Shown here: positions 4,718 through 18,879 of the stretch, piece by piece | How the letters are laid out: the number at the start of each line of letters is the position of its first letter | How positions within the stretch are numbered: position 1 is the first letter of the stretch | DNA from: an uncultured Chloroflexia bacterium | GTDB taxonomy: Bacteria; Chloroflexota; Limnocylindria; QHBO01 | NCBI GenBank assembly: GCA_963825525.1 | Contig: CAWGTN010000002.1 | Span: 704,001 to 768,000, forward strand | Direction: 5' to 3' | Length of the DNA: 64,000 bases | Position numbers and translations under genes: made by a program | Notes under the pieces: model-generated | The model's input: only the letters and a program-made list of their open reading frames with translations | Databases searched by the model: none | Told to the model about the DNA's origin: nothing

Positions 4718-5680
4718 TCAGTCGAGCGTGAAGTAGTCGCTGCCCGAGTAGCGCCCGGTGCGCTCCTTGCGGATCTGCATGAGCACGTCGTTCAGCAGGC
4801 TCGATGCGCCGAAGCGGAAAAGGTCAGGTGTCATCCAACGCGGGCCGAGGGTCTCGTACAGGGTCGTGAGGTACGAGATCGCCTCCTTGGCGGTCTTGAT
4901 CCCACCTGCCGGCTTCATACCCACCACGCGCCCGGTCTGGGCGTGGAAGTCTCGGATCGCCTCGAGCATGACGAGCGTGACCGGGAGCGTGGCCGCGGGC
5001 TGCACCTTTCCGGTCGAGGTCTTGATGAAGTCGGCACCGGCGGCCATGGCCAGGACCGAGGCACGACGCACGTTGTCGTAGGTCTCCAGCTCGCCGGTCT
5101 CGAGGATCACCTTGAGGTGCGCCTCGCCGCACGCGTCCTTGACCGCAACGATCTCGTCGTACACCGATGCGTAGTCCCCCGCCAGGAAGGCGCCGCGGTC
5201 GATGACCATGTCGATCTCGTCGGCTCCCATTTCGACGGCGCCGCGCACGTCAGCCAGCTTGAGCTCGAGGGGCGCCTGTCCAGACGGGAAGTAGGTCGCC
5301 ACCGATGCGACCTTGACTCCCGACCCCTTCAGAGCCTCGACGGCGGTCGGAATCATGTTGGGATACACGCACAGCGCAGCCACCGAGGGAATGCTCGGGT
5401 CCGTGGGATCCGGCCGGCGCGCCTTGCCCGCGAGAGCGCGAATCTTGCCGGGAGTGTCCTTCCCCTCGAGCGTGGTGAGATCCATCATGCGGATCGCCAT
5501 GTCGAGGGCCCACAGCTTGGCGTCCTTCTTGATCGATCGCTTCGCGAGACTCGCGGCCCGCTCCTCCACGCCGACGGCGTCGACGGCCCAGACGCGGCCC
5601 AGCAAACTGCCCAGATGCTGGTGCTGCTTGCCGGTCAGCTCGCGTCGCGAAGTCGTGAGATCGCTGGTGGAGGTGCTCAT
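4718..5680 (-). CDS. deoC: Deoxyribose-phosphate aldolase
   Basis: DLTTLEG, GADEIDMV, LKVILETGEL, FIKTSTGK, KPAGG and FRFGASSLL. TACAAT lies 9 nt before the ATG at 5680. Confidence 0.95.
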   Translation of the reverse strand: MSTSTSDLTTSRRELTGKQHQHLGSLLGRVWAVDAVGVEERAASLAKRSIKKDAKLWALDMAIRMMDLTTLEGKDTPGKIRALAGKARRPDPTDPSIPSVAALCVYPNMIPTAVEALKGSGVKVASVATYFPSGQAPLELKLADVRGAVEMGADEIDMVIDRGAFLAGDYASVYDEIVAVKDACGEAHLKVILETGELETYDNVRRASVLAMAAGADFIKTSTGKVQPAATLPVTLVMLEAIRDFHAQTGRVVGMKPAGGIKTAKEAISYLTTLYETLGPRWMTPDLFRFGASSLLNDVLMQIRKERTGRYSGSDYFTLD

Positions 5681-5727
5681 CGGCCGATCATTGTACCGTC
5701 CGCGCAGCCTGCTACCCTTCGAGGCCG

Positions 5728-6099
5728 ATGGCCGCTGAACCGATCGTGTACTGCGTGACCCGTGACCGCGCGCTCGCCGCGGCGCTCGACGGCCGCCTGG
5801 CCGGCGCGATCGCGTTCTTCTATAACGATGCTGCACGCCTGCACCAGGCCGTCATGCTGCGCCGGCCCGATCACGTGGTCGTCGACACTGGCGCGATTCA
5901 TGAGGAGTACGGCGACGCCGGACTGGGCCCGGTGCTGGACTTCCTGCGCCATCGCGCCGCCGGCACGAGGCTGTCGATTCGACCGACGCTCGGCGCCGAG
6001 CACCTGATCCTGGCCGAGGCCGGAACCGACGTGTCGCTCCTGCCGCACGAGATCAACGCGTGCGTGGAAGCCGTTGCCTCCGCCTGTGGCTGCGACTGA
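5728..6099 (+). CDS. Hypothetical protein, atypical receiver-domain-like, with C-terminal Cys cluster
   Basis: 123 aa alpha/beta pattern, RRPDHVVVD, ends CVEAVASACGCD. TACCCT lies 9 nt before the ATG. Confidence 0.6.
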   Translation: MAAEPIVYCVTRDRALAAALDGRLAGAIAFFYNDAARLHQAVMLRRPDHVVVDTGAIHEEYGDAGLGPVLDFLRHRAAGTRLSIRPTLGAEHLILAEAGTDVSLLPHEINACVEAVASACGCD

Positions 6100-6105
6100 C
6101 GGGCG

Positions 6106-6558
6106 TCAGCCGTCCCCCGCGATGAGGGCCGAGGGCACGGCGCAGGCGGACTCGCCGCCGAACTCGGCAGCGACCGGTGCCGGCGGTATCCGGCCGCGGC
6201 GACGCGGAGGCCAGTAGCGCCAGGCGACCACCCAGCTGATGCCGGACGCGGGCACCGCACCGAAGACGCGGCCATCCGTGCTCCAGGCGGGATTGTCGCC
6301 GCGCAGATCCACGCCCGAGGCGCGGACGCGCGCCACCCGCTTGACGATCTCGCGGGATGGCCGCCGAGGGTCAGTGACGACCACCACGTCTCCGGGGCGC
6401 GGTGGCCGTGCCCGTCGAACCAGCAGGAGTCGATCCCCCGGCGCGAGGGTCGGCAGCATCGAACGGCCGCGCACCTCGACGGTGTCGAGCCAACGCCGAG
6501 CGACCCATGCCACCGCGAGGACGAAGAGAGGCGCCACGGCGGCGCCTCTCCATCTCAT
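6106..6558 (-). CDS. sodX: Nickel-type superoxide dismutase maturation protease (S26 family)
   Basis: GRSMLPTL, IVKRV and GDNPAWSTDGRVFG. Immediately downstream of sodN. Confidence 0.9.
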   Translation of the reverse strand: MRWRGAAVAPLFVLAVAWVARRWLDTVEVRGRSMLPTLAPGDRLLLVRRARPPRPGDVVVVTDPRRPSREIVKRVARVRASGVDLRGDNPAWSTDGRVFGAVPASGISWVVAWRYWPPRRRGRIPPAPVAAEFGGESACAVPSALIAGDG

Positions 6559-6571
6559 CGGTGGCCGCCCG

Positions 6572-7003
6572 TCAGGAAGGGCGCCCGTTGACGCGGGTCT
6601 TCTCGAGGCCGCCCGTCGCCTTCCACATCTCATCGACGGTGTCGATCATGGCAAGCAGCTCCTTGGCGGCGCCGGCATCCAGGCTCTGCTTCACCTTGCT
6701 GGCCTGCTTGGTGGCCTTCCAGAATGTGTCGTGCAGGTCCGGGTACTTCTCGAGGTGCTCCGGTTTGAAGTAGTCGTGCCAGAGGACGTCGAGATGATGC
6801 TTGACCAGCTCGGCGCGCTCCTCCTTGACGTGAATGCATCGTGCGCGGAACAGGGCATCATCGCTGGCATCGTGCTTCTCGATGATCCGGAGGCAGGATT
6901 CGGCCTCGATTCGCGCCTGTTCGGGGTCATAGACACCGCATGGGATGTCGCAGTGGGCATCCACGATCCGCGCCGGACGCAGGATGGATCGGAGGGTCAG
7001 CAT
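6572..7003 (-). CDS. sodN: Nickel superoxide dismutase precursor
   Basis: 16-aa leader followed by the nickel hook HCDIPCGVYDP, plus LWHDYFK. GAGGAG RBS and TAAGAT -10. Confidence 0.96.
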   Translation of the reverse strand: MLTLRSILRPARIVDAHCDIPCGVYDPEQARIEAESCLRIIEKHDASDDALFRARCIHVKEERAELVKHHLDVLWHDYFKPEHLEKYPDLHDTFWKATKQASKVKQSLDAGAAKELLAMIDTVDEMWKATGGLEKTRVNGRPS

Positions 7004-7087: not shown

Positions 7088-7843
7088 TCAGCTGCCCATC
7101 ACGATGCCGCCGTCGACCCCGAGCACCTGTCCTGTGACGTATCGGGCTTCGTCGGAGGCGAAATAGACGGCTGCGGCGGCGACGTCGTCGACCGATCCGA
7201 CGTAGCCGAGGGGCGTCATGTTCGTGAGCGCCTCGGTGGCCGCGACGGGCAGATCCGAGGTGAGGTCGGTGTCGATGAGTCCCGGCGCGATGGCGTTGCA
7301 GGTGATGCCGCGGCTCGCGAGCTCCCTGGCGGTGGTCTTCGTCAGTCCGATGAGTCCTGCCTTGGCGGCCGCGTAGTTCGCCTGGCCCGGATTACCCATC
7401 CGGCCGGCCGCGCTGGACATGTTGATGATCCGCCCCGCGCGGGCCTTCATCATCGGGCGGGCGATCGCGCGCGTCATCCAGAACGGGCCACCCAGATTGG
7501 TGTCGATCACGGCGTCCCACTCCTCGGCGTCCATCCGAACGAGCAGATTGTCCCGGGTGATCCCGGCATTGTTGACGAGGATGTCGACGGATCCGAGGGC
7601 GTCGATGCCGCCCTTCACGATCGCGTCACACGCCTCGCGACCGCCGCTGGTGTCACCCTGGATGGCAACGCCCCGGCGGCCGAGTGCGGCGATCTCGGCG
7701 ACCACGTCGTCGGCCGCCTCCTGGTTCCCCCGATAGTTGACCGCGACATCGGCACCCTGGCGGGCAAGGGCCAGCGCGATCGCCCTCCCGAGTCCCCGAC
7801 TGCCGCCGGTGACCAGCGCCGTCTTCCCCGTCAGGTCGAACAT
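7088..7843 (-). CDS. fabG: 3-oxoacyl-ACP reductase
   Basis: TGGSRGLG, NNAGITRD and YAAAK. Confidence 0.95.
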   Translation of the reverse strand: MFDLTGKTALVTGGSRGLGRAIALALARQGADVAVNYRGNQEAADDVVAEIAALGRRGVAIQGDTSGGREACDAIVKGGIDALGSVDILVNNAGITRDNLLVRMDAEEWDAVIDTNLGGPFWMTRAIARPMMKARAGRIINMSSAAGRMGNPGQANYAAAKAGLIGLTKTTARELASRGITCNAIAPGLIDTDLTSDLPVAATEALTNMTPLGYVGSVDDVAAAAVYFASDEARYVTGQVLGVDGGIVMGS

Positions 7844-8913
7844 CAGGCTGAGGCCCTTTCGAGCTCGCGCTGCGGCTGGCCGAGCCGCGTCTGCGAGCCG
7901 GGAGCCAGGAACGCGCGCGCCGGATCGGCCGTCCACTCGACGACGGCGGCGCCGGCCGTGTAGCCAGCTCCGAAGGCAACCATGAGGATCGTGTCGCCGG
8001 GCTTGATTCGGCCGGCGGCCACGGCCTCCACCAGTGCCATGGGGACCGAGGCCGCACTCGTGTTGCCGTACTTCTCGATGTTGACGTACGTCTTCTCGGG
8101 CGGGATGTTGAGCTGCTTCTGGACGCTCGTGATGATCCGCAGGTTCGCCTGGTGGAAGACGAACTGGTCGACGTCGTCAACGGTCATGCCCGCGTTGCGC
8201 AGGGCCGCCACTGCGGACTCCCCCATCTGGCGGGTTGCGTACTTGTAGACCTCGCTGCCGAGCATCCGGATGGCGTGCTGGTGCGCGTCCACCGTCTCGT
8301 GGCTGGCGGGTCGCGCCGAACCCCCGGCCGGCATGATGATTCCCTCGCAGCCCGTCCCGTCGCTGAACAGGTCGAATCCCAGGAGCCCACCCTCCTTGTC
8401 CGAGGCCTGGAGGAGCACGGCACCCGCACCGTCACCGAAGAGGACGCACGTGCTGCGGTCGGTCCAATCCAGGAACCGGCTCAGCACCTCGACGCCGATG
8501 ACCATGACGTTGCGGTACATCCCGCTCCGGATGAAGCTGTGACCGGTGGCCAGGGCGTACAGGAATCCCGAGCACGCGGCCTGCAGGTCGAATCCCGATG
8601 CCCGCGTGGCCCCGAGCTCGGTGGCAACCAGGACGGCCGTTGCGGGCAGCGGGTAGTCGGGCGTGCAGGTTCCGACGATGATGAGATCCAGCTCGGAGGG
8701 CTGCAGGCCGGCAACCACCAGTGCATCGCGCGCGGCATGGACGGCGAGCGTCGTCGCCGTCTCGTCGTCGGCCGCGATCCGACGTTCGCGGATGCCGGTT
8801 CGAGACGTGATCCACTCGTCCGACGTGTCGACGATGGTGGAGAGCTCATCGTTCGTCATGACTCGCGACGGCGCGTACATCCCCCAGCCGCCGATCAGCG
8901 CATTGGTGGTCAT
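7843..8913 (-). CDS. fabH: Beta-ketoacyl-ACP synthase III
   Basis: DTSDEWITSRTGI, AACSGF, HQAN and YGNTSAAS. Confidence 0.96.
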   Translation of the reverse strand: MTTNALIGGWGMYAPSRVMTNDELSTIVDTSDEWITSRTGIRERRIAADDETATTLAVHAARDALVVAGLQPSELDLIIVGTCTPDYPLPATAVLVATELGATRASGFDLQAACSGFLYALATGHSFIRSGMYRNVMVIGVEVLSRFLDWTDRSTCVLFGDGAGAVLLQASDKEGGLLGFDLFSDGTGCEGIIMPAGGSARPASHETVDAHQHAIRMLGSEVYKYATRQMGESAVAALRNAGMTVDDVDQFVFHQANLRIITSVQKQLNIPPEKTYVNIEKYGNTSAASVPMALVEAVAAGRIKPGDTILMVAFGAGYTAGAAVVEWTADPARAFLAPGSQTRLGQPQRELERASA

Positions 8914-8947: not shown

Positions 8948-9415
8948 TCATCGGGGATCGATCTCGAGCAGTGGCTGCTTGCGCTTCACCAGCGTGCCCG
9001 GCTCGACCAGGATCCGGATCACGGTGCCTGCCGCGTCCGACTTGATCTCGTTGAAGAGCTTCATGGCCTCGATCAGGCCGACCACCTGGCCCTGCTGGAC
9101 GCGGTCGCCCTCCGCGACGTACGCCCGCGCGCCGGGCGACGGTGCGGAGTACCAGACCCCGGTGAGCGGCGCGCTCACGAATCGCATGCCGGGTGACGGC
9201 TCCCCGAATGGGGTGAGCTGCTCCGGCGCCCGTTCGGCAACCGGAGCGGGCGCGGGCGCGCTCGGCGCGATGGCTGCCGGCTCGACGGCCACGCGCGTTC
9301 GGGCAAGCCGAACGTGGAGGTCGTCGACCTCGATCTCGAGCTCATCGAGGCCTTCCTCGTCGAACGCGGGGGCAAGCAAGTCCACCGCCCGCAGAATGGA
9401 TTCCGGATCGCCCAT
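8948..9415 (-). CDS. accB: Biotin carboxyl carrier protein (canonical)
   Basis: IEAMKLFNEI biotinylation motif, thumb loop SAPSPGARAY, and Ala/Pro linker. Confidence 0.93.
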   Translation of the reverse strand: MGDPESILRAVDLLAPAFDEEGLDELEIEVDDLHVRLARTRVAVEPAAIAPSAPAPAPVAERAPEQLTPFGEPSPGMRFVSAPLTGVWYSAPSPGARAYVAEGDRVQQGQVVGLIEAMKLFNEIKSDAAGTVIRILVEPGTLVKRKQPLLEIDPR

Positions 9416-10677
9416 CAGCGGTCGTACCGCCGGAAGACCACCGTGGCGTTGTGCCCACCGAATCCAAAGCTGTTGCTCATACCGATGGCCACCTCGGTCT
9501 GCCGAGCCTCGTGCGGCACATAGTCGAGATCGCACTCGGGATCCGGATGGTCGAGATTGATGGTGGGGGGCACGATCCCGGTCTTGATAGCCTGGATGGT
9601 GGCGATGGCCTCGATGCCGCCGCCCGCGCCCATCAGGTGACCCGTCATCGACTTCGTGCTGCTGATCGGCACCCGGTATGCGCCCTCGCCGAAGAGGGTC
9701 TTGATCGCTGCCGTCTCGGAGCGGTCGTTGGGGAGCGTGCTCGTGCCATGCGCGTTGATGTAGTCGATGTCGCCCGTCTCGACGCCCGCATCGGCGACGG
9801 CCACTCGCATGCTCTCGACCGCGCCACGACCTCCCGGCGCGGGGAGCGTGATGTGGGAGGCGTCGTCGGTCGCCCCATAGCCGACAACCTCGGCGTGGAT
9901 CGTGGCGCCGCGCGCCTTGGCGTGGTCGAGTGCCTCGAGCACCAGGATGCCCGCGCCGTCGCCCATCACGAAGCCGTCGCGCTCGGCATCGAATGGGCGC
10001 GATGCCTTCTCCGGCTCATGGTTGCGCTTCGTCGAGAGCGCGCGCATGGCGCTGAAGGCCGCGACCGGGATCTCGCCGATGCCCGCCTCCGCGCCGCCGG
10101 CGATCATGATGTCGGCCTCGCCGCGCCGGATGATGTTCATCGAATCACCGATGGCATGATTCGCGCTCGAGCAGGCGCTGACCGTCGCGTAGTTCGGACC
10201 CCGGGCATTGGCATAGATGGCGACGTATCCGGCGGCCATGTCGGGGATGAGCGCCGTCACCAGGAACGGGCCGATCCGTTCGACGCCGTGGAGCGCGGCC
10301 TCGGTGACGTCGCGGATCATCGTGTTGATGCCGCCGATTCCCGAGCCGATGATGCAGCCGGTGCGCCACGCCAGGGCGTCATCGGTGATCGGATTCTCGA
10401 TTCCGGCATCCCGCAGGGCCTCGGCCACGGCAGCCCACGCATAGTGGACGTAGCGGTCGTTGCGACGGACCTCCTTCTTCGGCATGACCGTATCGGCCTC
10501 GAAGCCCTTGATCTCGCCGGCGACCTTGCTGGCGGTCTTCACCGGGTCGAAGGTGGTGATCGGGCCGATGCCACTCCGTCCGTTCACCAGTCCGTCCCAG
10601 AATGCGGGCACGTCATTGCCGATCGGGGTCAGGGCGCCCATCCCGGTCACGACCACCCGTCGCTCGCCGTCACGCAT
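9415..10677 (-). CDS. fabF: Beta-ketoacyl-ACP synthase II
   Basis: [27 protein letters not shown] and NSFGFGGHN. Confidence 0.96.
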
Positions 10678-11167
10678 CGGTCTGCCCTCCGCCCATCTCC
10701 TGGTCTCGCGGAATGATGATCGACAGCGTCGCCTCGACGGCCACCTCGCCGTCGACGCTGGCGATCCCCCGCACCCGACCGAACATGCCGCGCAGCTTCT
10801 CGACGTTGACCTCGAGCCGAAGGGTATCGCCGGGGATGACCATGCGCCGGAACCGACAGTCGTCGATTCCGGCGAACAGGCCGAGCTTGCCGCGGTACTC
10901 GGGGAGCGTCATCACCGCGACGCCCGCCGTCTGTGCCAGCGCCTCGACCATGAGCACACCCGGCATGATCGGCCTCCCGGGAAAGTGGCCGGTGAACTGC
11001 GGCTCGTTGGCCGTCACCGCCTTGAGCCCGACCGCCCGCCGCCCGGGCTCCAGCTCGACGATCCGATCGACGAGCAGAAACGGGTAGCGGTGCGGAATGA
11101 TGCCCATGATGTCGGCTGCCTCGAGGGGCAGTGTCGGGGTCTCGGTGGACGTGGTATCGGTCGTCAT
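10670..11167 (-). CDS. fabZ: 3-hydroxyacyl-ACP dehydratase
   Basis: [11 protein letters not shown] and [22 protein letters not shown]. Alternative start at 11197. Confidence 0.95.
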
Positions 11168-11186
11168 CGGTTCGATTCGGGGCTCC

Positions 11187-12545
<1,359 letters not shown>

Positions 12546-12547
12546 GT

Positions 12548-13501
12548 CTATGCCGATGCCTGCACGGCAGCCGTGGTCCGCAGGAGATCGGCGGCCGCCT
12601 GGACGCTGGCCGCGTCGGTTGCGGGCAGCGCACGGATCTCGGGCGCGATGCGCTTCAGCATGCCGACGAGCGCGGACCCGGCGCCGCACTCGATCGCGAC
12701 GTCGACACCGGCTTCGGCCATTGCCTCTACGCTGCGCACCCACTCGACCGGCGATCGGACCTGCTCGGCCAGCAGGCGGCGGATGCGGTCCGCATCGGTG
12801 AGCAGCTCGGCACTGACGTTGCTGACGACCGGCACGCGGGCGTCGGACCACTCCTCCTGGTCGAACGCGGACGCGAGCGCGTCGGCAACCTCCGACATCT
12901 GCGGCGAGTGGAACGCTCCCGAGACCGGCAGCGGGACGATGCGCTTCGCCCCGGCGGCTCGCAGCGGCTCTTCCGCCGCCTCGAGCGCATCACGCATGCC
13001 GGAGATCACGACCTGGCCGGGCGCATTGTCGTTGGCGACCACCAGCTCGGTCGGCCGGCCCACGCTCGCCACGACCTCGTCGACCGAGGTGCGTGTCAGT
13101 CCGATGACCGCCGACATGCCGCCGCCCGTGCCGGCCTCGGCCATGAGTGCACCGCGTCGTGCGACGAGTCGCAGCGCCGCCGAGAAGTCGAGGACGCCGG
13201 CCGCGACGAGTGCAGCGAACTCCCCCACGGAGTGCCCGGCAACCACGCTCGGCCGGACGGGTGCCAGGGTGTCGAGGACGCGGTACGCGGCGATCGACGT
13301 GGTCAGCAGGCACGGCTGCGTCTGCCGGGTATCGGAGAGGCGCTCGGCCGGGCCATTCCAGCAGGTCTGGCTGACGGACCAGCCCAGCACGCTGTCGGCC
13401 TCGGCGAAGGTGTCGCGGGCGACATCGTGACGCTCGGCGAGCTCACGGCCCATGCCCACGACCTGCGACCCCTGCGGACTGAAGAGCAGCGCAACGCTCA
13501 T
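12548..13501 (-). CDS. fabD: Malonyl-CoA:ACP transacylase
   Basis: PQGSQ, GHSVGE catalytic serine and SGAFHS. Confidence 0.94.
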   Translation of the reverse strand: MSVALLFSPQGSQVVGMGRELAERHDVARDTFAEADSVLGWSVSQTCWNGPAERLSDTRQTQPCLLTTSIAAYRVLDTLAPVRPSVVAGHSVGEFAALVAAGVLDFSAALRLVARRGALMAEAGTGGGMSAVIGLTRTSVDEVVASVGRPTELVVANDNAPGQVVISGMRDALEAAEEPLRAAGAKRIVPLPVSGAFHSPQMSEVADALASAFDQEEWSDARVPVVSNVSAELLTDADRIRRLLAEQVRSPVEWVRSVEAMAEAGVDVAIECGAGSALVGMLKRIAPEIRALPATDAASVQAAADLLRTTAAVQASA

Positions 13502-13965
13502 GCCCGCGCCGCCGCGTGCTCGAGCTCGAGCACCACCTGTCCGTACTCGACCGCCTCGCCACTCTCGGCCACCAGGTTTCGGACGGTGCCGCCCCGCGGG
13601 GCGCGAACGTCGTGCCGGATGCCGAGCATCTCGACGTGGCCCAGGGCATCCCCCTTCTCGACCTCGAGGCCCGGTCCCAGGCCATCGGCGTAGACGAAGA
13701 ATCCGACGGCCGGCGACGCGACCCCGACCGCTGCGGACTGCTCGGAGCGTGCGGCGGCCGGTTGGGCCTCACTCGTCAGCGAGTCGGCACCGGGTGCGGG
13801 GGCGCGGGTCGGCGCTCCGGCGGCGCGTGCGACGCGGAGCTGGAGGTCATCGGTGGAAACCTCGATCTCCCCCAGGCCATAGCGGGTCAGCCGCTCCGTC
13901 AGGGGTTTGACCAGCTCGGACGCAGCTCGTGCGATGGCCTCCAGCGCCTGCTCGTGATCCGTCAT
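13498..13965 (-). CDS. BCCP-like protein lacking the biotinylated lysine (BADC-like)
   Basis: BCCP architecture (LGEIEV N-domain, Ala/Pro linker, SPAVG..VEKGDALG..GEAVEYGQVV), but EMLG replaces EAMK. Overlaps accA and fabD by 4 nt. Confidence 0.88.
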   Translation of the reverse strand: MTDHEQALEAIARAASELVKPLTERLTRYGLGEIEVSTDDLQLRVARAAGAPTRAPAPGADSLTSEAQPAAARSEQSAAVGVASPAVGFFVYADGLGPGLEVEKGDALGHVEMLGIRHDVRAPRGGTVRNLVAESGEAVEYGQVVLELEHAAARA

Positions 13966-14960
13966 GCGCCTCTCTCGTTCTCGTCGTCGGCATCGTTGCT
14001 CGGCCAGATCTCACTCCAACGCGGGCGCCGTGGCACGCCGGGGAGGTGCAGGATGCGCCCGATCCGACGGCGCAATGAAGGCACCTCAGGATGACCGGAA
14101 CTGCTCGCATCCGTCTCGAGGAAGGCCCCCATGCCGCGCAGCCGAGCATAGCGGGTCGCCAGCAGTTCGGCCGTGTCCTGGTCTGACAGGCGTCGCATGG
14201 CCGAGATGATCGCGGCCTTCACCGCGCGGCCGGTGGCGGCATGATCAGTGTGTGCGCCCTCGCCGGGCTCGGCCACGATCGCGTCGACCACGCCGAGATC
14301 GACCTGGTCGTCGGCCGTCATGCGCATCGCCGCGGCCGCGGTTCGCGCCTCATCACGGGATCGCCACAGGATGGACGCGCAACCCTCCGGGCTGATCACC
14401 GAGTAGACGGCATTCTCGAGCGCCAGGACGATGTCGCCGACGCCCAACGCCAACGCGCCGCCGGAGCCGCCCTCGCCCAGCACCACGACCACGATGGGCA
14501 CCTGGAGCCCGGTCATGAGCTTGATGCTCGAGGCGATGGCCTCCGCCTGACCGCGCTCCTCGGCGGCCGGACCGGGAAAGGCCCCGGCCGTGTCGAGGAA
14601 GGTGACCACGGGCATGCCGAGCTTGTCCGCAAGGCGCATCAGGCGCTGAGCCTTCCGGAACCCCTCGGGATGAGGAGACCCGAAGTTGCGGGCGATGTTC
14701 GATTCGGTGTCGGTCCCCTTCTGGTGGCCGACGACCATGACCGGAACGCCATCCAGCGTGGCGGGTCCGCCGACGATGGCCGGATCCTCCCCGAACGCGC
14801 GATCGCCATGCAGCTCGAAAAAGCCGTCGAAGATGAGGTCGATCAGGTCCAGTGACCGGGGTCGCTGTGGGTGCCGAGCCAGTTGGACCCGACGCCAGGC
14901 GTCCTCGACCGCAGCCTCGGTCGCCGGGCCGGCTCGTTCGACGATCGGCGCGCCGGTCAT
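13962..14960 (-). CDS. accA: Acetyl-CoA carboxylase carboxyltransferase alpha
   Basis: LARHPQRP, ELHGDR, PEGFRKA, AEERGQ, GEGGSGGAL and YSVISPEGCASIL. Confidence 0.96.
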   Translation of the reverse strand: MTGAPIVERAGPATEAAVEDAWRRVQLARHPQRPRSLDLIDLIFDGFFELHGDRAFGEDPAIVGGPATLDGVPVMVVGHQKGTDTESNIARNFGSPHPEGFRKAQRLMRLADKLGMPVVTFLDTAGAFPGPAAEERGQAEAIASSIKLMTGLQVPIVVVVLGEGGSGGALALGVGDIVLALENAVYSVISPEGCASILWRSRDEARTAAAAMRMTADDQVDLGVVDAIVAEPGEGAHTDHAATGRAVKAAIISAMRRLSDQDTAELLATRYARLRGMGAFLETDASSSGHPEVPSLRRRIGRILHLPGVPRRPRWSEIWPSNDADDENERGA

Positions 14961-15961
14961 CGGGCCTTCTCGGACGTGGCTTCGGGCACTGCGGGGCTGC
15001 CATTCCCGGCGGCCGGCGGCTGCTCGACGTCGATACCGATCGTTTCGCTCACGGCACCGCCAAAGCGTTCGGCGAAGCCGCTGAGGGCGCCGATCGGACC
15101 CCAGGGTCGCTCCTGCTGGCGCGGCTGTCCGTCATCGACGGCGGCCACCGGCAGCAAGCGAAGAAGCCGCGACAGGCTCGATCGCAGCTCGGGACGTGGC
15201 ACCACGGCGTCGACAAAGCCGTGCTCGAGGAGGAATTCGGCAGTCTGGAAGCCCTCCGGCATCTGCTCGCCGACCGTGTCGGACGCGACGCGCGCGCCGG
15301 CGAAGCCGATGAGTGCCTTCGGCTCGGCCACGATGACGTCGCCCAGGCTCGCGAAGCTGGCGAGCACGCCACCGGTGGTGGGGTCCGTCAGGACGGTGAT
15401 GAAGGGGACGCCGGCGGCGTCGAGGTGCACGAGCGGCGCGGTCGTCTTCGCGAGCTGCATGAGCGCCAGTGTTCCCTCCTGCATGCGCGCGCCCCCGGAG
15501 GCGCTGACGACGATCGCGGGAATCCGCTCCGTCACGGCCGTCTCGAAGCAGCGGGCCAGCTTCTCGCCTACGACGCTTCCCATGCTGCCGCCCATGAAGC
15601 GGAAGTCGAAGATGCCGATTGCCACCCGCTGCCCGTCGATCGAACCGATCCCCCACACCACGGCGTCGCGAAGGCCCGTCTTGAGGCGCGACGCCTCCAG
15701 CCGGTCACCGTACGAGCGATCGTCATGAAAGCCGAGCCGATCGACGGCCTCCAGACCGGCATCGCGCTCCTCGAAGCTCCCCGCGTCGAGCAGCAGATCG
15801 ATTCGCTCACCGACCGACATGCGGAAGTGATGACCGCACGATGGACACAGCCGCTGGTTGCGCTCGAGCTGCTTGTTGAAGACCTGCGCGTCGCAGGTCG
15901 GACATTTCGTCCAGGCATCGGATGGTGCCGCGCGCCGGCTGAATGGGAACTTGATCGGCAA
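14957..15961 (-). CDS. accD: Acetyl-CoA carboxylase carboxyltransferase beta
   Basis: WTKCPTC..CPSC zinc finger, FMGGSMG, SGGARMQEG and PTTGGV. Probable TTG start after a purine-rich RBS. Confidence 0.95.
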   Translation of the reverse strand: MPIKFPFSRRAAPSDAWTKCPTCDAQVFNKQLERNQRLCPSCGHHFRMSVGERIDLLLDAGSFEERDAGLEAVDRLGFHDDRSYGDRLEASRLKTGLRDAVVWGIGSIDGQRVAIGIFDFRFMGGSMGSVVGEKLARCFETAVTERIPAIVVSASGGARMQEGTLALMQLAKTTAPLVHLDAAGVPFITVLTDPTTGGVLASFASLGDVIVAEPKALIGFAGARVASDTVGEQMPEGFQTAEFLLEHGFVDAVVPRPELRSSLSRLLRLLPVAAVDDGQPRQQERPWGPIGALSGFAERFGGAVSETIGIDVEQPPAAGNGSPAVPEATSEKAR

Positions 15962-15980
15962 TCTCTTTCTCTCCGTCACG

Positions 15981-16352
15981 CTATCGATGAAGGAGCTTGT
16001 TGGCGATTGGCGCTCGGCGGTTGCTGCGCCACACCGCGTAGGCGGTGACCCCGACACCCACCGCCGACCCCACCGCGCCGGTGACGATCAGCCTGCCGGG
16101 ATGACGCAGCGCCCAGCCCACCGGGTCTCGCGATCCGCCGTTGGAGGCCAGGCGTGTGCCCAGCTGCGCCTCGAAACGCGGCGATGCAACGGGTGCGCGG
16201 AGGTTGTCGCGCAGATCGCTCGCGACGTCGAGCAGGTCACGCTGTTCGGGGTCGATGCGTGCCGAAGCCGCCGCTGCGGCCGGAGAACGGCCCGAGAGAA
16301 CGAGATCGACGGCGCGATCGAGGCGCTCGACGACCGACGGGGAATGGGTCAT
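15981..16352 (-). CDS. Small single-TM protein, putative anti-sigma factor
   Basis: Helical N-domain (LDRAVD..LLDVASDLR..SPRFEAQL), one Gly/Val-rich TM helix and a short basic tail. Follows the ECF sigma gene. Confidence 0.65.
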   Translation of the reverse strand: MTHSPSVVERLDRAVDLVLSGRSPAAAAASARIDPEQRDLLDVASDLRDNLRAPVASPRFEAQLGTRLASNGGSRDPVGWALRHPGRLIVTGAVGSAVGVGVTAYAVWRSNRRAPIANKLLHR

Positions 16353-16426: not shown

Positions 16427-17011
16427 CTAACCTGGGCTCGGGTGCTCCTCGAGCAGGGCGGCCAGCTCGCGCAGCGCCCGATGCTGCAGCACGCGCACGG
16501 CACCCGGGCTGCGGTCGAGCACCTCCGCGATCTCCGTCGTGGAGAGACCATCCACGAATCGCAGCACGACCACCTGGCGGCGATCCGGCGCAAGCCGCCC
16601 CACGGCGGTCCGCAGCCGGCGCGCGTCATCGGCCTGGTTGGCCAGGCGAGCCGGATCGCTCGCGGCGGAGATCACGGCTCCCTCGTCGAGGGGGCCGGTA
16701 CGCTGCCGTGACCGCGCCCTGAGGGCGTTGACGAGCTCGTTATGAGCGATCCGAAACAGCCACGATCGAAAGCTCGATCCCGTATCGCGGAAGCCATGCA
16801 GGCCGGCCATCGCGGCGAGGAAGCTGCGCTCGGTCACGTCCTCGGCGTCGTGATGGTCGCCCAGGAGGTAGAACGCGTAGCCGTAGACCGGGTCGAGATA
16901 CCGGCGATACAGGGTTGCGAACGCGGCGCGATCGGCCTGCGCGGCGCGAACCGCCGGGAGGTCCGGGTCCCCCTCACCCCTGGGGCGCGCCGCGGGGCGT
17001 GTCGGGCTCAT
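16427..17011 (-). CDS. ECF RNA polymerase sigma factor
   Basis: AFATLYRRY, DAEDVT, FRSWLFRIAHN and EIAEVLDRSPGAVRVLQHRALR. Start overlaps the birA stop. Confidence 0.92.
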   Translation of the reverse strand: MSPTRPAARPRGEGDPDLPAVRAAQADRAAFATLYRRYLDPVYGYAFYLLGDHHDAEDVTERSFLAAMAGLHGFRDTGSSFRSWLFRIAHNELVNALRARSRQRTGPLDEGAVISAASDPARLANQADDARRLRTAVGRLAPDRRQVVVLRFVDGLSTTEIAEVLDRSPGAVRVLQHRALRELAALLEEHPSPG

Positions 17012-17790
17012 GCGGGCGCACCGGCACGCAGTGCGACGATCTCCCCACCCGTGACCGTGACCGAGCCGGCCGCGGTCCGCACCACGAGCGCCCCACCCGC
17101 ATCGAGGTCGACGGCACGTCCACTGACGCGAGCGCCTCCGGCGTCGATCTCGACGTCGGTCCCGAGGGTCACGCACGCTGCCCGGTAGCGGTCCAGCGGG
17201 GAATGTCCGGCCTCCAGACGCACGATCTCGTCGTCGAGCGCGTCCAGCAGCCGGCCCAGCAGCGTTTCGCGGTTCAGCGTCACCCCGGCCTCCTCGGCCA
17301 GCGAGGTCGCGAGGTGCGCGATCTCCGGCGGCATATCCCGGCGCATCCAGTTCACGTTGATGCCGACGCCGATGACCGCGGTGGTGATCCGGTCACCATC
17401 GAGCTCCGTCTCGATGAGGAGGCCACCGATCTTGGCGCCGCTGCCCGAGACGAGATCGTTCGGCCACTTGAGGCCGATGGATGCCACCGACCCGCACGCA
17501 TCGCGCGCCGCCAGTGCCGCCGCCAATGAGATGAGCGACGCCTCCCGCGCGGCGATTCGCGGACGAACGCCGACGCTCACGGCCAGGTTGACGCCACCCG
17601 GCGACACCCAGGTCCGGCCACGCCGCCCGCGACCGGCGGTCTGAACTTCGGCGACCACGGCGCGGCCCTCCGCGTCGGGCTCATCGAGGAGGCGCCTCGC
17701 CCGGTCGTTCGTCGACCCGATGCTGTCGTGGACCTCGATTCCACGGCCCGCGCGCCGACGTGGTCGATCGGCGGTCTGCCACGGCGTCAT
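17008..17790 (-). CDS. birA: Biotin--[acetyl-CoA carboxylase] ligase (no HTH)
   Basis: GSTND, QTAGRGRRGRTW, LKWPND and KIGGLLIE. TATCGT lies 6 nt before the ATG. Confidence 0.93.
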   Translation of the reverse strand: MTPWQTADRPRRRAGRGIEVHDSIGSTNDRARRLLDEPDAEGRAVVAEVQTAGRGRRGRTWVSPGGVNLAVSVGVRPRIAAREASLISLAAALAARDACGSVASIGLKWPNDLVSGSGAKIGGLLIETELDGDRITTAVIGVGINVNWMRRDMPPEIAHLATSLAEEAGVTLNRETLLGRLLDALDDEIVRLEAGHSPLDRYRAACVTLGTDVEIDAGGARVSGRAVDLDAGGALVVRTAAGSVTVTGGEIVALRAGAPA

Positions 17791-17853
17791 GCGCTCACGA
17801 TACCGCCTCATTGGCCCGGTGAGCACGAGGCGGTGCGCTACACTCGCCGTCCC

Positions 17854-18879
17854 ATGGCCCAGATTCTCGATGCTCGCGACGCCTCGTCCCGCCCGGTGCG
17901 CGAGCGGGTGTTCAGCGGGATCCAGCCATCGGGCGCTTCGCACCTGGGGAACTATCTCGGCGCCCAGGCGAATTTCGTCGCCCTCCAGGATCGGTTTGAC
18001 GCGATCTACGCGATCGTCGACTACCACGCGTTGACGACCGTCCATGACGGCGCGGAGCTCCGCCGACTCGCCCACGAGATGGTCCTCGACCTTCTCGCGG
18101 TCGGCCTCGACCCGGCGCGCTGCGCGCTGATCCGCCAGTCGGACGTTCCCGAGCTCGCCGAGCTGACCTGGATCTTCAACACCGTGACGCCGGTGAGCTG
18201 GGCCGAGCGGACCCCGACCTACAAGGAGAAGCGGGCCCAGGGCATCGAGAACAGCCTCGGCCTGCTCGACTACCCGATTCTTCAGGCAGCGGACATCGTG
18301 ATCTACAAGGCCACCCACGTCCCCGTGGGACGGGACCAGGCAGCCCATCTCGAGCTGTCGCGCGAGGTCGTGCGGGCCTTCAACCGCCGCTACGGACCGA
18401 TCTTCCCGGAGCCGGCGCCCGTGTTCACGGAGGCCCCGACCGTGCTCGGTCTCGACGGGCAGGCAAAGATGAGCAAGAGCGCGAACAACACGATCCCGAT
18501 CTTCGCCGAGCCGGACGAGATTCGACGACTGGTGATGAGCATGGTCACCGACCCGCAGCGCATCAAGCGCACCGACCCGGGTCGACCGGAGATCTGCAAC
18601 GTGTGCCAGCTCCATCGGTTCTTCGGCGAGGACTATCTCCAGATACAGGATGGTGAGCGGACGGCGCGTACCGGTTGCGTCGACACGAAGCAGCTCCTGG
18701 CCGAGCGGATCATCGAGTTCTTCCGGCCGATGCGCGAGGAGCGCGCCCGCATGGCGGCCGATCCGGCGCTGGTCGAGGCCACGCTTGCTGCCGGCGTCGC
18801 GAAGGTGCGGCCGATCGTCGATGCCACGATGCGCGAGGTTCGCGACGCGGTGGGCATCGGACCACACCCACAGCCATGA
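17854..18879 (+). CDS. trpS: Tryptophan--tRNA ligase
   Basis: FSGIQPSG..HLGNY, YPILQAADI, VPVGRDQ and KMSKS. Confidence 0.96.
   Translation: MAQILDARDASSRPVRERVFSGIQPSGASHLGNYLGAQANFVALQDRFDAIYAIVDYHALTTVHDGAELRRLAHEMVLDLLAVGLDPARCALIRQSDVPELAELTWIFNTVTPVSWAERTPTYKEKRAQGIENSLGLLDYPILQAADIVIYKATHVPVGRDQAAHLELSREVVRAFNRRYGPIFPEPAPVFTEAPTVLGLDGQAKMSKSANNTIPIFAEPDEIRRLVMSMVTDPQRIKRTDPGRPEICNVCQLHRFFGEDYLQIQDGERTARTGCVDTKQLLAERIIEFFRPMREERARMAADPALVEATLAAGVAKVRPIVDATMREVRDAVGIGPHPQP

Follow-up and report, generated by a model that had tools for sequence, protein, structure and literature searches.

Introduction

Heteromeric acetyl-CoA carboxylase (ACC) carries out the committed step of fatty-acid synthesis; its subunits are loosely associated, and its assembly and regulation are unsettled in Escherichia coli and in plastids. 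In the present work, we analyzed a gene, hereafter X, that encodes a biotin carboxyl carrier protein (BCCP, AccB) paralog without the biotinyl-Lys and that lies in an acc/fab operon of an uncultured soil Chloroflexia bacterium (Chloroflexota; Limnocylindria). The window, i.e., the whole stretch of DNA analyzed, comprises 64,000 nucleotides (positions 704,001 to 768,000 of contig CAWGTN010000002.1, assembly GCA_963825525.1), and X occupies positions 13498 to 13965 of its minus strand.

The sections of three papers drawn on here describe the plant and algal BADC proteins as BCCP homologs that share 25 to 30% identity with BCCP, lack the AMKL motif and bind both biotin carboxylase (BC) and BCCP, and they present the role of BADC as disputed between an inhibitor and a "glue" of the BC subcomplex (PMC11926652, PMC12706156, PMC13585458). 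One of these papers terms BADC "unique to the plant htACCase" and cites the epsilon subunits of actinobacterial acyl-CoA carboxylases as an analogy for it (PMC11926652). Like the role proposed below for X, that of the epsilon subunits is one of a small, non-catalytic "glue" that helps to assemble and activate a bacterial carboxylase. We know of no sequence relationship between the epsilon subunits and BCCP. A further precedent comes from BC1 of Chloroflexus, for which the pertinent part of the report describes four N-terminal BCCP hairpins that interlock as an eight-stranded barrel joining two BC dimers; deletion of the hairpin, unlike that of the carrier core, splits the tetramer and lowers BC activity (PMC11077971).

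X resembles BADC (Arabidopsis BADC1-3 and the BADC-like protein of Chlamydomonas) in being a BCCP homolog that lacks the biotinyl-Lys motif and has about 25 to 30% identity to BCCP. In each case a true BCCP for a heteromeric ACC is encoded as well, and neither protein is catalytic; the description of a BADC fits X. X differs in being bacterial, operon-encoded and translationally coupled to acc genes, and in belonging to a Chloroflexota-wide lineage with efp-X-xseA as its probable ancestral site. In our literature search, which did not include Salie 2016 and Conrado 2024, the works likeliest to treat the subject, no description of a bacterial non-biotinylated BCCP paralog was found, and the novelty of a bacterial dead carrier is provisional. 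A new observation is that other Chloroflexota classes, too, have AccB-like genes without the Lys, as seen in 26 of the 32 best matches examined. We lean, without great firmness, toward the reading that X is a functional, non-biotinylatable AccB paralog whose most likely place is that of a non-catalytic subunit in the BC (AccC) half of ACC, with a mode of action similar to that of plant BADC.

Results

The original prediction, made from the window alone, held that the operon contains two BCCP-like genes, one of which has lost its biotin-accepting Lys. Both were recovered as open reading frames (ORFs) on the minus strand, accB at 8948-9415 and X at 13498-13965, the latter intact, with an ATG start and 155 codons for amino acids. 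Full-length BLASTP between the two proteins gave 28% identity (E 2e-9), and their hairpin stretches, ...GQVVGLIEAMKLFNEIKSDAAGTV... in accB and ...GDALGHVEMLGIRHDVRAPRGGTV... in X, aligned with no gap between them, IEAMKLFNEI of accB facing VEMLGIRHDV of X. The predicted Lys-to-Gly change was borne out by the codons as well: residues 112-115 (EMLG) of X are encoded at 13632-13621, and Gly115 is GGC at 13623-13621. Both residues of the biotinylation motif were altered, the biotinyl-Lys to Gly and the preceding Met to Leu, and the resulting Leu114-Gly115 pair (13621-13626) stands in place of Met-Lys. As had also been predicted, the only lysines of X lie elsewhere (K20 and K103), and the thumb loop is shortened, with 10 residues separating the conserved Gly88 from Gly99 (13669-13704) in X versus 16 in accB; E. 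coli BCCP likewise carries a 6-residue insertion at the thumb relative to the X profile.

X thus lacks both the biotinyl-Lys within an (E)(A/V)MK(M/L) hairpin and the thumb loop by which a BCCP is recognized, while the C-terminal biotinyl/lipoyl barrel-sandwich and the N-terminal BC-interacting and oligomerizing region are both present, as judged by sequence only. Pfam Biotin_lipoyl (PF00364) matched residues 97-148 of X at 27 bits (cut-off 22.1) and accB, which has EAMKL and a thumb, at 56.7 bits. With the NCBIfam BCCP equivalog TIGR00531, X scored 37 bits and the true accB 104.8 bits, both under the cut-off of 115.2; because even the true accB falls short, this cut-off discriminates weakly here.

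A word-indexed protein search with X returned 1677 proteins at E<=1e-3, of which 120 close homologs were listed and were 64 to 96% identical to X. In the window X and these 120 close homologs, Gly occupied the Lys column without exception (121/121), within motifs of the VEMLG(I/V)RHD type. Where source names were given, the close homologs came from "Candidatus Limnocylindria" or from Chloroflexota metagenome-assembled genomes (MAGs), and we accordingly refer to the window's class as Limnocylindria. Some source annotations read "biotin/lipoyl-containing protein" and others "hypothetical protein"; still others, "acetyl-CoA carboxylase biotin carboxyl carrier protein", are misleading.

A profile (A1) built from 18 X proteins was then run on 1.84 billion cluster representatives (50% identity) and found 138 proteins at E<=1e-30; Leu-Gly was present in all 150 of the best representatives. 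The same pair, together with the short thumb region and an invariant VEYG, recurred in 13 of 13 distant X proteins of the class, which are only 27 to 39% identical to the window X, and 14 columns were invariant across the class alignment. When 151 family members were searched for an alternative conserved Lys, the highest Lys frequency in any column was 19%, which leaves no other site for modification. Among these members, the Gly88-Gly99 spacing of 10 was kept in 139. A further signature, VEYGQ, lies at residues 139-143 (13537-13551): its V, E, Y and G are invariant and its Q at least 90% conserved in A1, each of the five residues being conserved at 93 to 100% in the 151 members, and where X has VEYGQ, accB of Limnocylindria reads LVK(A/R)KQP.

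The coding sequence of X was found to be under purifying constraint comparable to that of its neighbors. Between close orthologs, the median pairwise ratio of nonsynonymous to synonymous substitution rates (dN/dS) was 0.152 for X (9 pairs, range 0.08-0.20), alongside 0.15 for accB, 0.165 for fabD, 0.111 for accA and 0.149 for accC. DNA contigs from three further studies matched the X ORF at 95 to 99% identity with zero indels, two of them (X4 and X5) covering the whole ORF and one (X11) most of it. One independent contig carried a variant at 13621, GGC>GGA, which is synonymous and still encodes Gly.

These data bear on whether X might be a decaying accB duplicate, i.e., a pseudogene, or a sequencing or assembly artifact. 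The loss of the catalytic Lys and of the thumb is what decay would produce. However, the ORF is intact in all listed homologs, Leu-Gly is fixed in the family, selection on X is as strong as given above, and contigs assembled independently agree with it; the conservation, the dN/dS value and the independent contigs exclude both readings, to which we assign next to no probability. The change of Met as well as Lys, with Gly in every close homolog, also upholds the earlier claim that a sequencing error is not involved, and orthologs that keep Met-Lys or decay, which that prediction had named as evidence against itself, were not encountered in the X family. Together, the results support X as a real, selected BCCP paralog that cannot be biotinylated.

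Next, X was compared with solved BCCP structures. The A1 profile aligned over its positions 18-150 with E. coli BCCP (4hr7_B, from residue 26 onward; E 3e-22), over positions 32-153 with the BCCP domain of BC1 from Chloroflexus aurantiacus (8hz4_E; E 4.3e-11), and with the solved BCCP domains 1a6x, 3bdo and 1bdo at E values of 1e-12 to 3e-13. The N-terminal 50 residues of X alone gave only insignificant matches in the PDB, to designed helical proteins, and the homology of the N-terminal domain rests on the full-profile alignment. On this profile evidence, both domains of X were shown to be homologous to those of BCCP. X and E. coli AccB (4hr7_B; TIGR00531) share a two-domain layout, in which an Ala/Pro-rich linker connects the N-terminal region to a biotinyl-type barrel-sandwich at the C-terminus, whereas X differs by Leu-Gly for Met-Lys, a thumb 6 residues shorter and its low TIGR00531 score. 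As to BC1, the match with 8hz4_E makes the hairpin barrel the structural basis that we propose for X; the BC1 hairpin, however, is fused to BC and its carrier core has a working Lys553, whereas X is free-standing and has no such Lys, and a barrel formed by X is a prediction from homology.

The N-terminal segment of X at residues 28-47 (YGLGEIEVSTDDLQLRVARA; 13825-13884) aligns with the N-terminal regions of E. coli BCCP and of the window accB. This segment, GLGEIEV...L.LRV.R, ranks among the best-conserved parts of X, and L22, L31, E33, E35, R44 and R46 were at least 90% conserved in the 151 members; the C-terminal domain was no less strongly conserved than the N-terminal one. In E. coli AccB, the N-terminal domain regulates accBC transcription, and X could accordingly be an autoregulator of operon expression that keeps only this regulatory function. 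Conservation of the N-terminal region would agree with such a role; yet no DNA- or RNA-binding feature was found in X by Pfam or NCBIfam, and conservation of the C-terminal domain would be needless for a purely N-terminal function. We regard autoregulation as very improbable.

The gene order on the minus strand is accD-accA-X-fabD-accC-fabZ-fabF-accB-fabH-fabG, tightly packed, with intergenic gaps from accD to fabG of -4, -4, -4, +2, -11, -8, -1, +34 and about -1 nt. The carboxyltransferase (CT) genes precede X: accD, for the beta subunit, at 14957-16057 (TIGR00515, 361.3 bits, cut-off 317.45) and accA, for the alpha subunit, at 13962-14960 (NF004344, 387.3 bits, cut-off 357). X overlaps accA by 4 nt on one side and fabD (12548-13501; TIGR00128, 312 bits, cut-off 260.9) by 4 nt on the other, in agreement with the coordinates of the earlier claim of an intact, overlapping gene, and a GAGAGG-like purine run precedes its ATG. 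The 452-residue BC is encoded by accC at 11187-12545 (TIGR00514, 661.1 bits, cut-off 626.5), whose start lies 2 nt past the end of fabD. The 4-nt overlaps point to co-translation.

Candidate fusions of X were also considered. A search for fused forms of 388 to 2000 amino acids at E<=1e-10 yielded three matches, with no X-AccC or AccA-X fusion among them. Two metagenome proteins (P0402 and P0403) that join the C-terminal part of X to FabD are probably frameshift or gene-call errors at the 4-nt overlap and not true fusions; the third long match was an oxaloacetate-decarboxylase-type protein. An apparent AccA-X fusion at locus L028 was resolved as a frame that extends from stop to stop across a masked stretch; X there has its own start.

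The synteny of X was then followed through the class. Among 40 relatives' genomes, a strong X match was present in 23 of the 24 genomes of the same genus, the exception (G008) being 56% complete. Of 251 genomes sampled across the phylum, each at least 80% complete, 28 belonged to the window's class and 223 did not. X was found in all 28 class genomes, in 27 of them at 146.9 bits or more; in the lowest-scoring one (95.6 bits), X was cut by a contig end and retained Leu-Gly. X followed accA in 14 of 16 loci fetched from other families of the class; as for the two other loci, one lies on a contig that begins at fabD, and for the other the fetched stretch did not include the region. The order common to the class is accD-accA-X-(fabD)-accC-fabZ-fabF-accB-fabH-fabG, and in several families X immediately precedes accC, where accB classically stands, as in a canonical accBC pair. 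The predicted accA-X-fabD synteny thus held, with X embedded in the ACC operon across the class. In one family (f2; L022-L026), 0.3 to 2.5 kb of extra sequence lies between X and fabD, and accD-accA-X is intact.

A pattern scan of named species genomes identified LG-type X at 64 of 80 loci, 62 of the 64 with Chloroflexota-type names, and in 50 of these 64 LG-type loci of named MAGs, an accB with Met-Lys (MK) lay 3.6 to 4.7 kb downstream. The remaining 16 loci, from Proteobacteria, Gaiellaceae and other Thermoleophilia, Planctomycetota and others, comprised 14 ordinary MK BCCPs, one unclear alignment and one Lys-to-His variant. On a 71% GC contig (L108), a BCCP-like gene at 4794-5381(+) of that contig reads EAMHL, with His for Lys, directly upstream of accC at 5299-6198(+); it may be another dead-carrier variant.

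Lys-less relatives of X were also found in many families of other Chloroflexota classes. Outside the class, 153 of the 223 genomes had a match at E<=1e-8, none above 96.5 bits. Best matches were inspected in 32 of these genomes, which represent the top of the ranking spread over family codes and are not a random sample; 26 lacked the Lys and 6 had a normal AMK. In the 26 Lys-less proteins, the Lys site was occupied by G, N, Q, R, H, D or A, usually with Leu for Met; VEYGQ was kept, and most of them retained a loop of thumb length. A profile of these 26 proteins (A3) retrieved 5415 proteins at E<=1e-10, and the best 120 comprised 102 Lys-less and 18 MK proteins. The Lys-less genes (L109-L117, L119, L122, L123, L125-L130, L134, L135, L137 and L139-L143) usually stood in the order pepP-efp-X-xseA: efp immediately preceded the Lys-less gene in 11 of 11 other-class loci, and xseA followed in 8 of the 11. 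In one such genome (G173), the Lys-less gene was accompanied by a normal MK accB beside fabF.

In Limnocylindria, xseA directly followed efp in 6 of 6 genomes, the window's and five from three other families, with no BCCP-like ORF between them. Other classes have efp-X-xseA where Limnocylindria has efp-xseA, and this is most simply read as a probable move of an old, Lys-less AccB paralog from its efp locus into the ACC operon of the Limnocylindria ancestor. In a quick maximum-likelihood tree (LG+G4; 72 rows, 98 columns), accB of Limnocylindria and the fabF-linked MK BCCPs of other classes fell into one clade (starred, 97), and all X and Lys-less proteins lay outside it. Approximately unbiased (AU) tests did not reject a single clade of all 42 Lys-less rows (p 0.70), nor one made up of the 15 X rows from Limnocylindria (p 0.46). 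Because these groups were drawn up only once the feature was known, and the VEYGQ pattern guided the choice of outgroup BCCPs, this outcome is compatible with such clades and is not proof of them.

The efp linkage raises a different possibility, namely that the role of X is unrelated to ACC, X being a small adaptor for efp/xseA or for another biotin enzyme and its place in the operon a historical accident. The constant efp neighborhood of the other-class genes, with no acc or fab gene nearby, would agree with this, as would the two further BC paralogs with biotin domains of their own in the window's genome. True accB, however, commonly stands beside efp in other bacteria, and on that footing the adjacency probably reflects ancestry and not function. 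Moreover, X retains both BCCP domains, each of the 28 sampled class genomes has it within the ACC operon, and several families place it immediately before accC. A role apart from ACC is therefore, in our estimate, quite unlikely.

Discussion

The reading that we prefer places X within the BC half of ACC. X would bind AccC through its BCCP-type N-terminal region, alone or mixed with true AccB, and would fill BCCP positions on AccC. Its C-terminal domain, with Leu-Gly and without the thumb, would be unable to carry CO2. In this way, X could assemble or stabilize the BC subcomplex or set the number of working carrier arms. That X binds AccC or AccB, that its hairpin serves in such a barrel, and which way activity would shift are our inferences. 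We favor a stoichiometric, structural "glue" subunit over a decoy made only under certain conditions, given the translational coupling of X to accA, fabD and accC and its position directly upstream of accC in several families.

A decoy is nevertheless the likeliest of the rival readings. X would then be a competitive inhibitor, as in the "negative regulator" model of BADC, binding AccC at BCCP sites or plugging the BC or CT active site by means of its dead hairpin, and ACC flux would drop as X occupancy rises, e.g., with pH, energy state or PII. The BCCP-like anatomy serves this explanation as well as it serves a glue, and the Leu-Gly tip, invariant in the 150 representatives, suggests that the loop still contacts something. 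In plants, moreover, passages of two of the papers consider BADC a competitor of BCCP for BC (PMC13585458, PMC12706156). Against it, X is start/stop-overlapped with accA and fabD just upstream of accC, with no separate regulation visible, and it would be costly to inhibit an essential enzyme stoichiometrically and constitutively; an assembly role is also favored by recent plant work (PMC11926652). We consider an inhibitory decoy unlikely.

Several observations weigh against an assembly subunit of the BC half all the same. The Pfam match on X is confined to its last 52 residues. The thumb, which is deleted in X, is described in a section of the plant work as important for E. coli BCCP function and as a proposed BADC contact on plant BCCP (PMC11926652), and with its loss X may not dock as BCCP does. 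The invariant Leu-Gly tip of the hairpin suggests a specific role for the loop that a pure scaffold would not explain, and it hints at a specific contact, such as active-site plugging, that would fit the decoy. No acc or fab gene was seen within about 4.5 kb of the Lys-less gene at the 12 other-class loci inspected; therefore, operon membership supports a link to ACC only in Limnocylindria, and the link to efp still allows for an unrelated role. Finally, the 98-column tree is poorly resolved.

The proposal that X is a bacterial BADC analog in an acc/fab operon accordingly stood in part: X is a non-biotinylatable BCCP paralog with conserved synteny, but the feature extends beyond this operon, to other Chloroflexota with efp-X-xseA. 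X looks like an old bacterial lineage and a BADC analog, not a member of the BADC family. It groups with the Lys-less and "VEYGQ"-type Chloroflexota BCCPs, which suggests a probable separate origin; common descent with plant BADC seems unlikely. The fuller account, in which a dead biotin-carrier subunit of ACC was kept in Chloroflexota since early in the phylum, moved from the efp locus to the ACC operon, beside accC, in Limnocylindria, and assembles or tunes the BC oligomer through its N-terminal hairpin, is put forward tentatively, with slightly more doubt than belief.

If true, bacteria and the plant lineage each came independently to dead carrier subunits of heteromeric ACC, and the BADC principle would not be an invention of plants. 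A conserved, operon-encoded bacterial counterpart, abundant in soil metagenomes, would show that the dead-carrier solution is recurrent. With one X, one AccB and one AccC, it would also offer a simpler system for reconstitution and structural work on the effect of a dead carrier on BC oligomers. As for annotation, many X proteins are labeled biotin carboxyl carrier protein though unable to carry biotin, and these labels call for correction.

Other genes in the window

The remaining genes of the operon, all on the minus strand, are fabZ at 10670-11197 (NF000582, 183.9 bits, cut-off 113), fabF at 9415-10677 (TIGR03150, 587.6 bits, cut-off 493.75), fabH at 7843-8913 (NF006829, 430.7 bits, cut-off 249) and fabG at 7088-7843 (TIGR01830, 301.9 bits, cut-off 297.75). 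About 1 kb upstream of accD lies a biotin-protein ligase gene (17008-17811, minus strand), whose BirA ligase domain scored 140 bits (cut-off 83) and which has no N-terminal repressor part; the interval between it and accD holds an ECF sigma factor gene at 16427-17176 as well as a small ORF at 15981-16352. The two additional BC paralogs of this genome, each with its own biotinyl domain, are at C2:1283025-1284533 and C1:235350-236950, one of them fused in a 692-residue frame.

An ORF at 17728-18879(+) carries a KMSKS motif and probably encodes a tryptophanyl- or other class-I tRNA synthetase; the long 619-residue minus-strand ORF opposite it is probably spurious, its 3' part being birA. One of a pair of minus-strand ORFs, at 6572-7003 or 6106-6633, starts with ...HCDIPCGVY... 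and is presumably related to nickel superoxide dismutase. The other ORF of the pair, which adjoins it, is signal-peptidase-like and is possibly its maturation protease.

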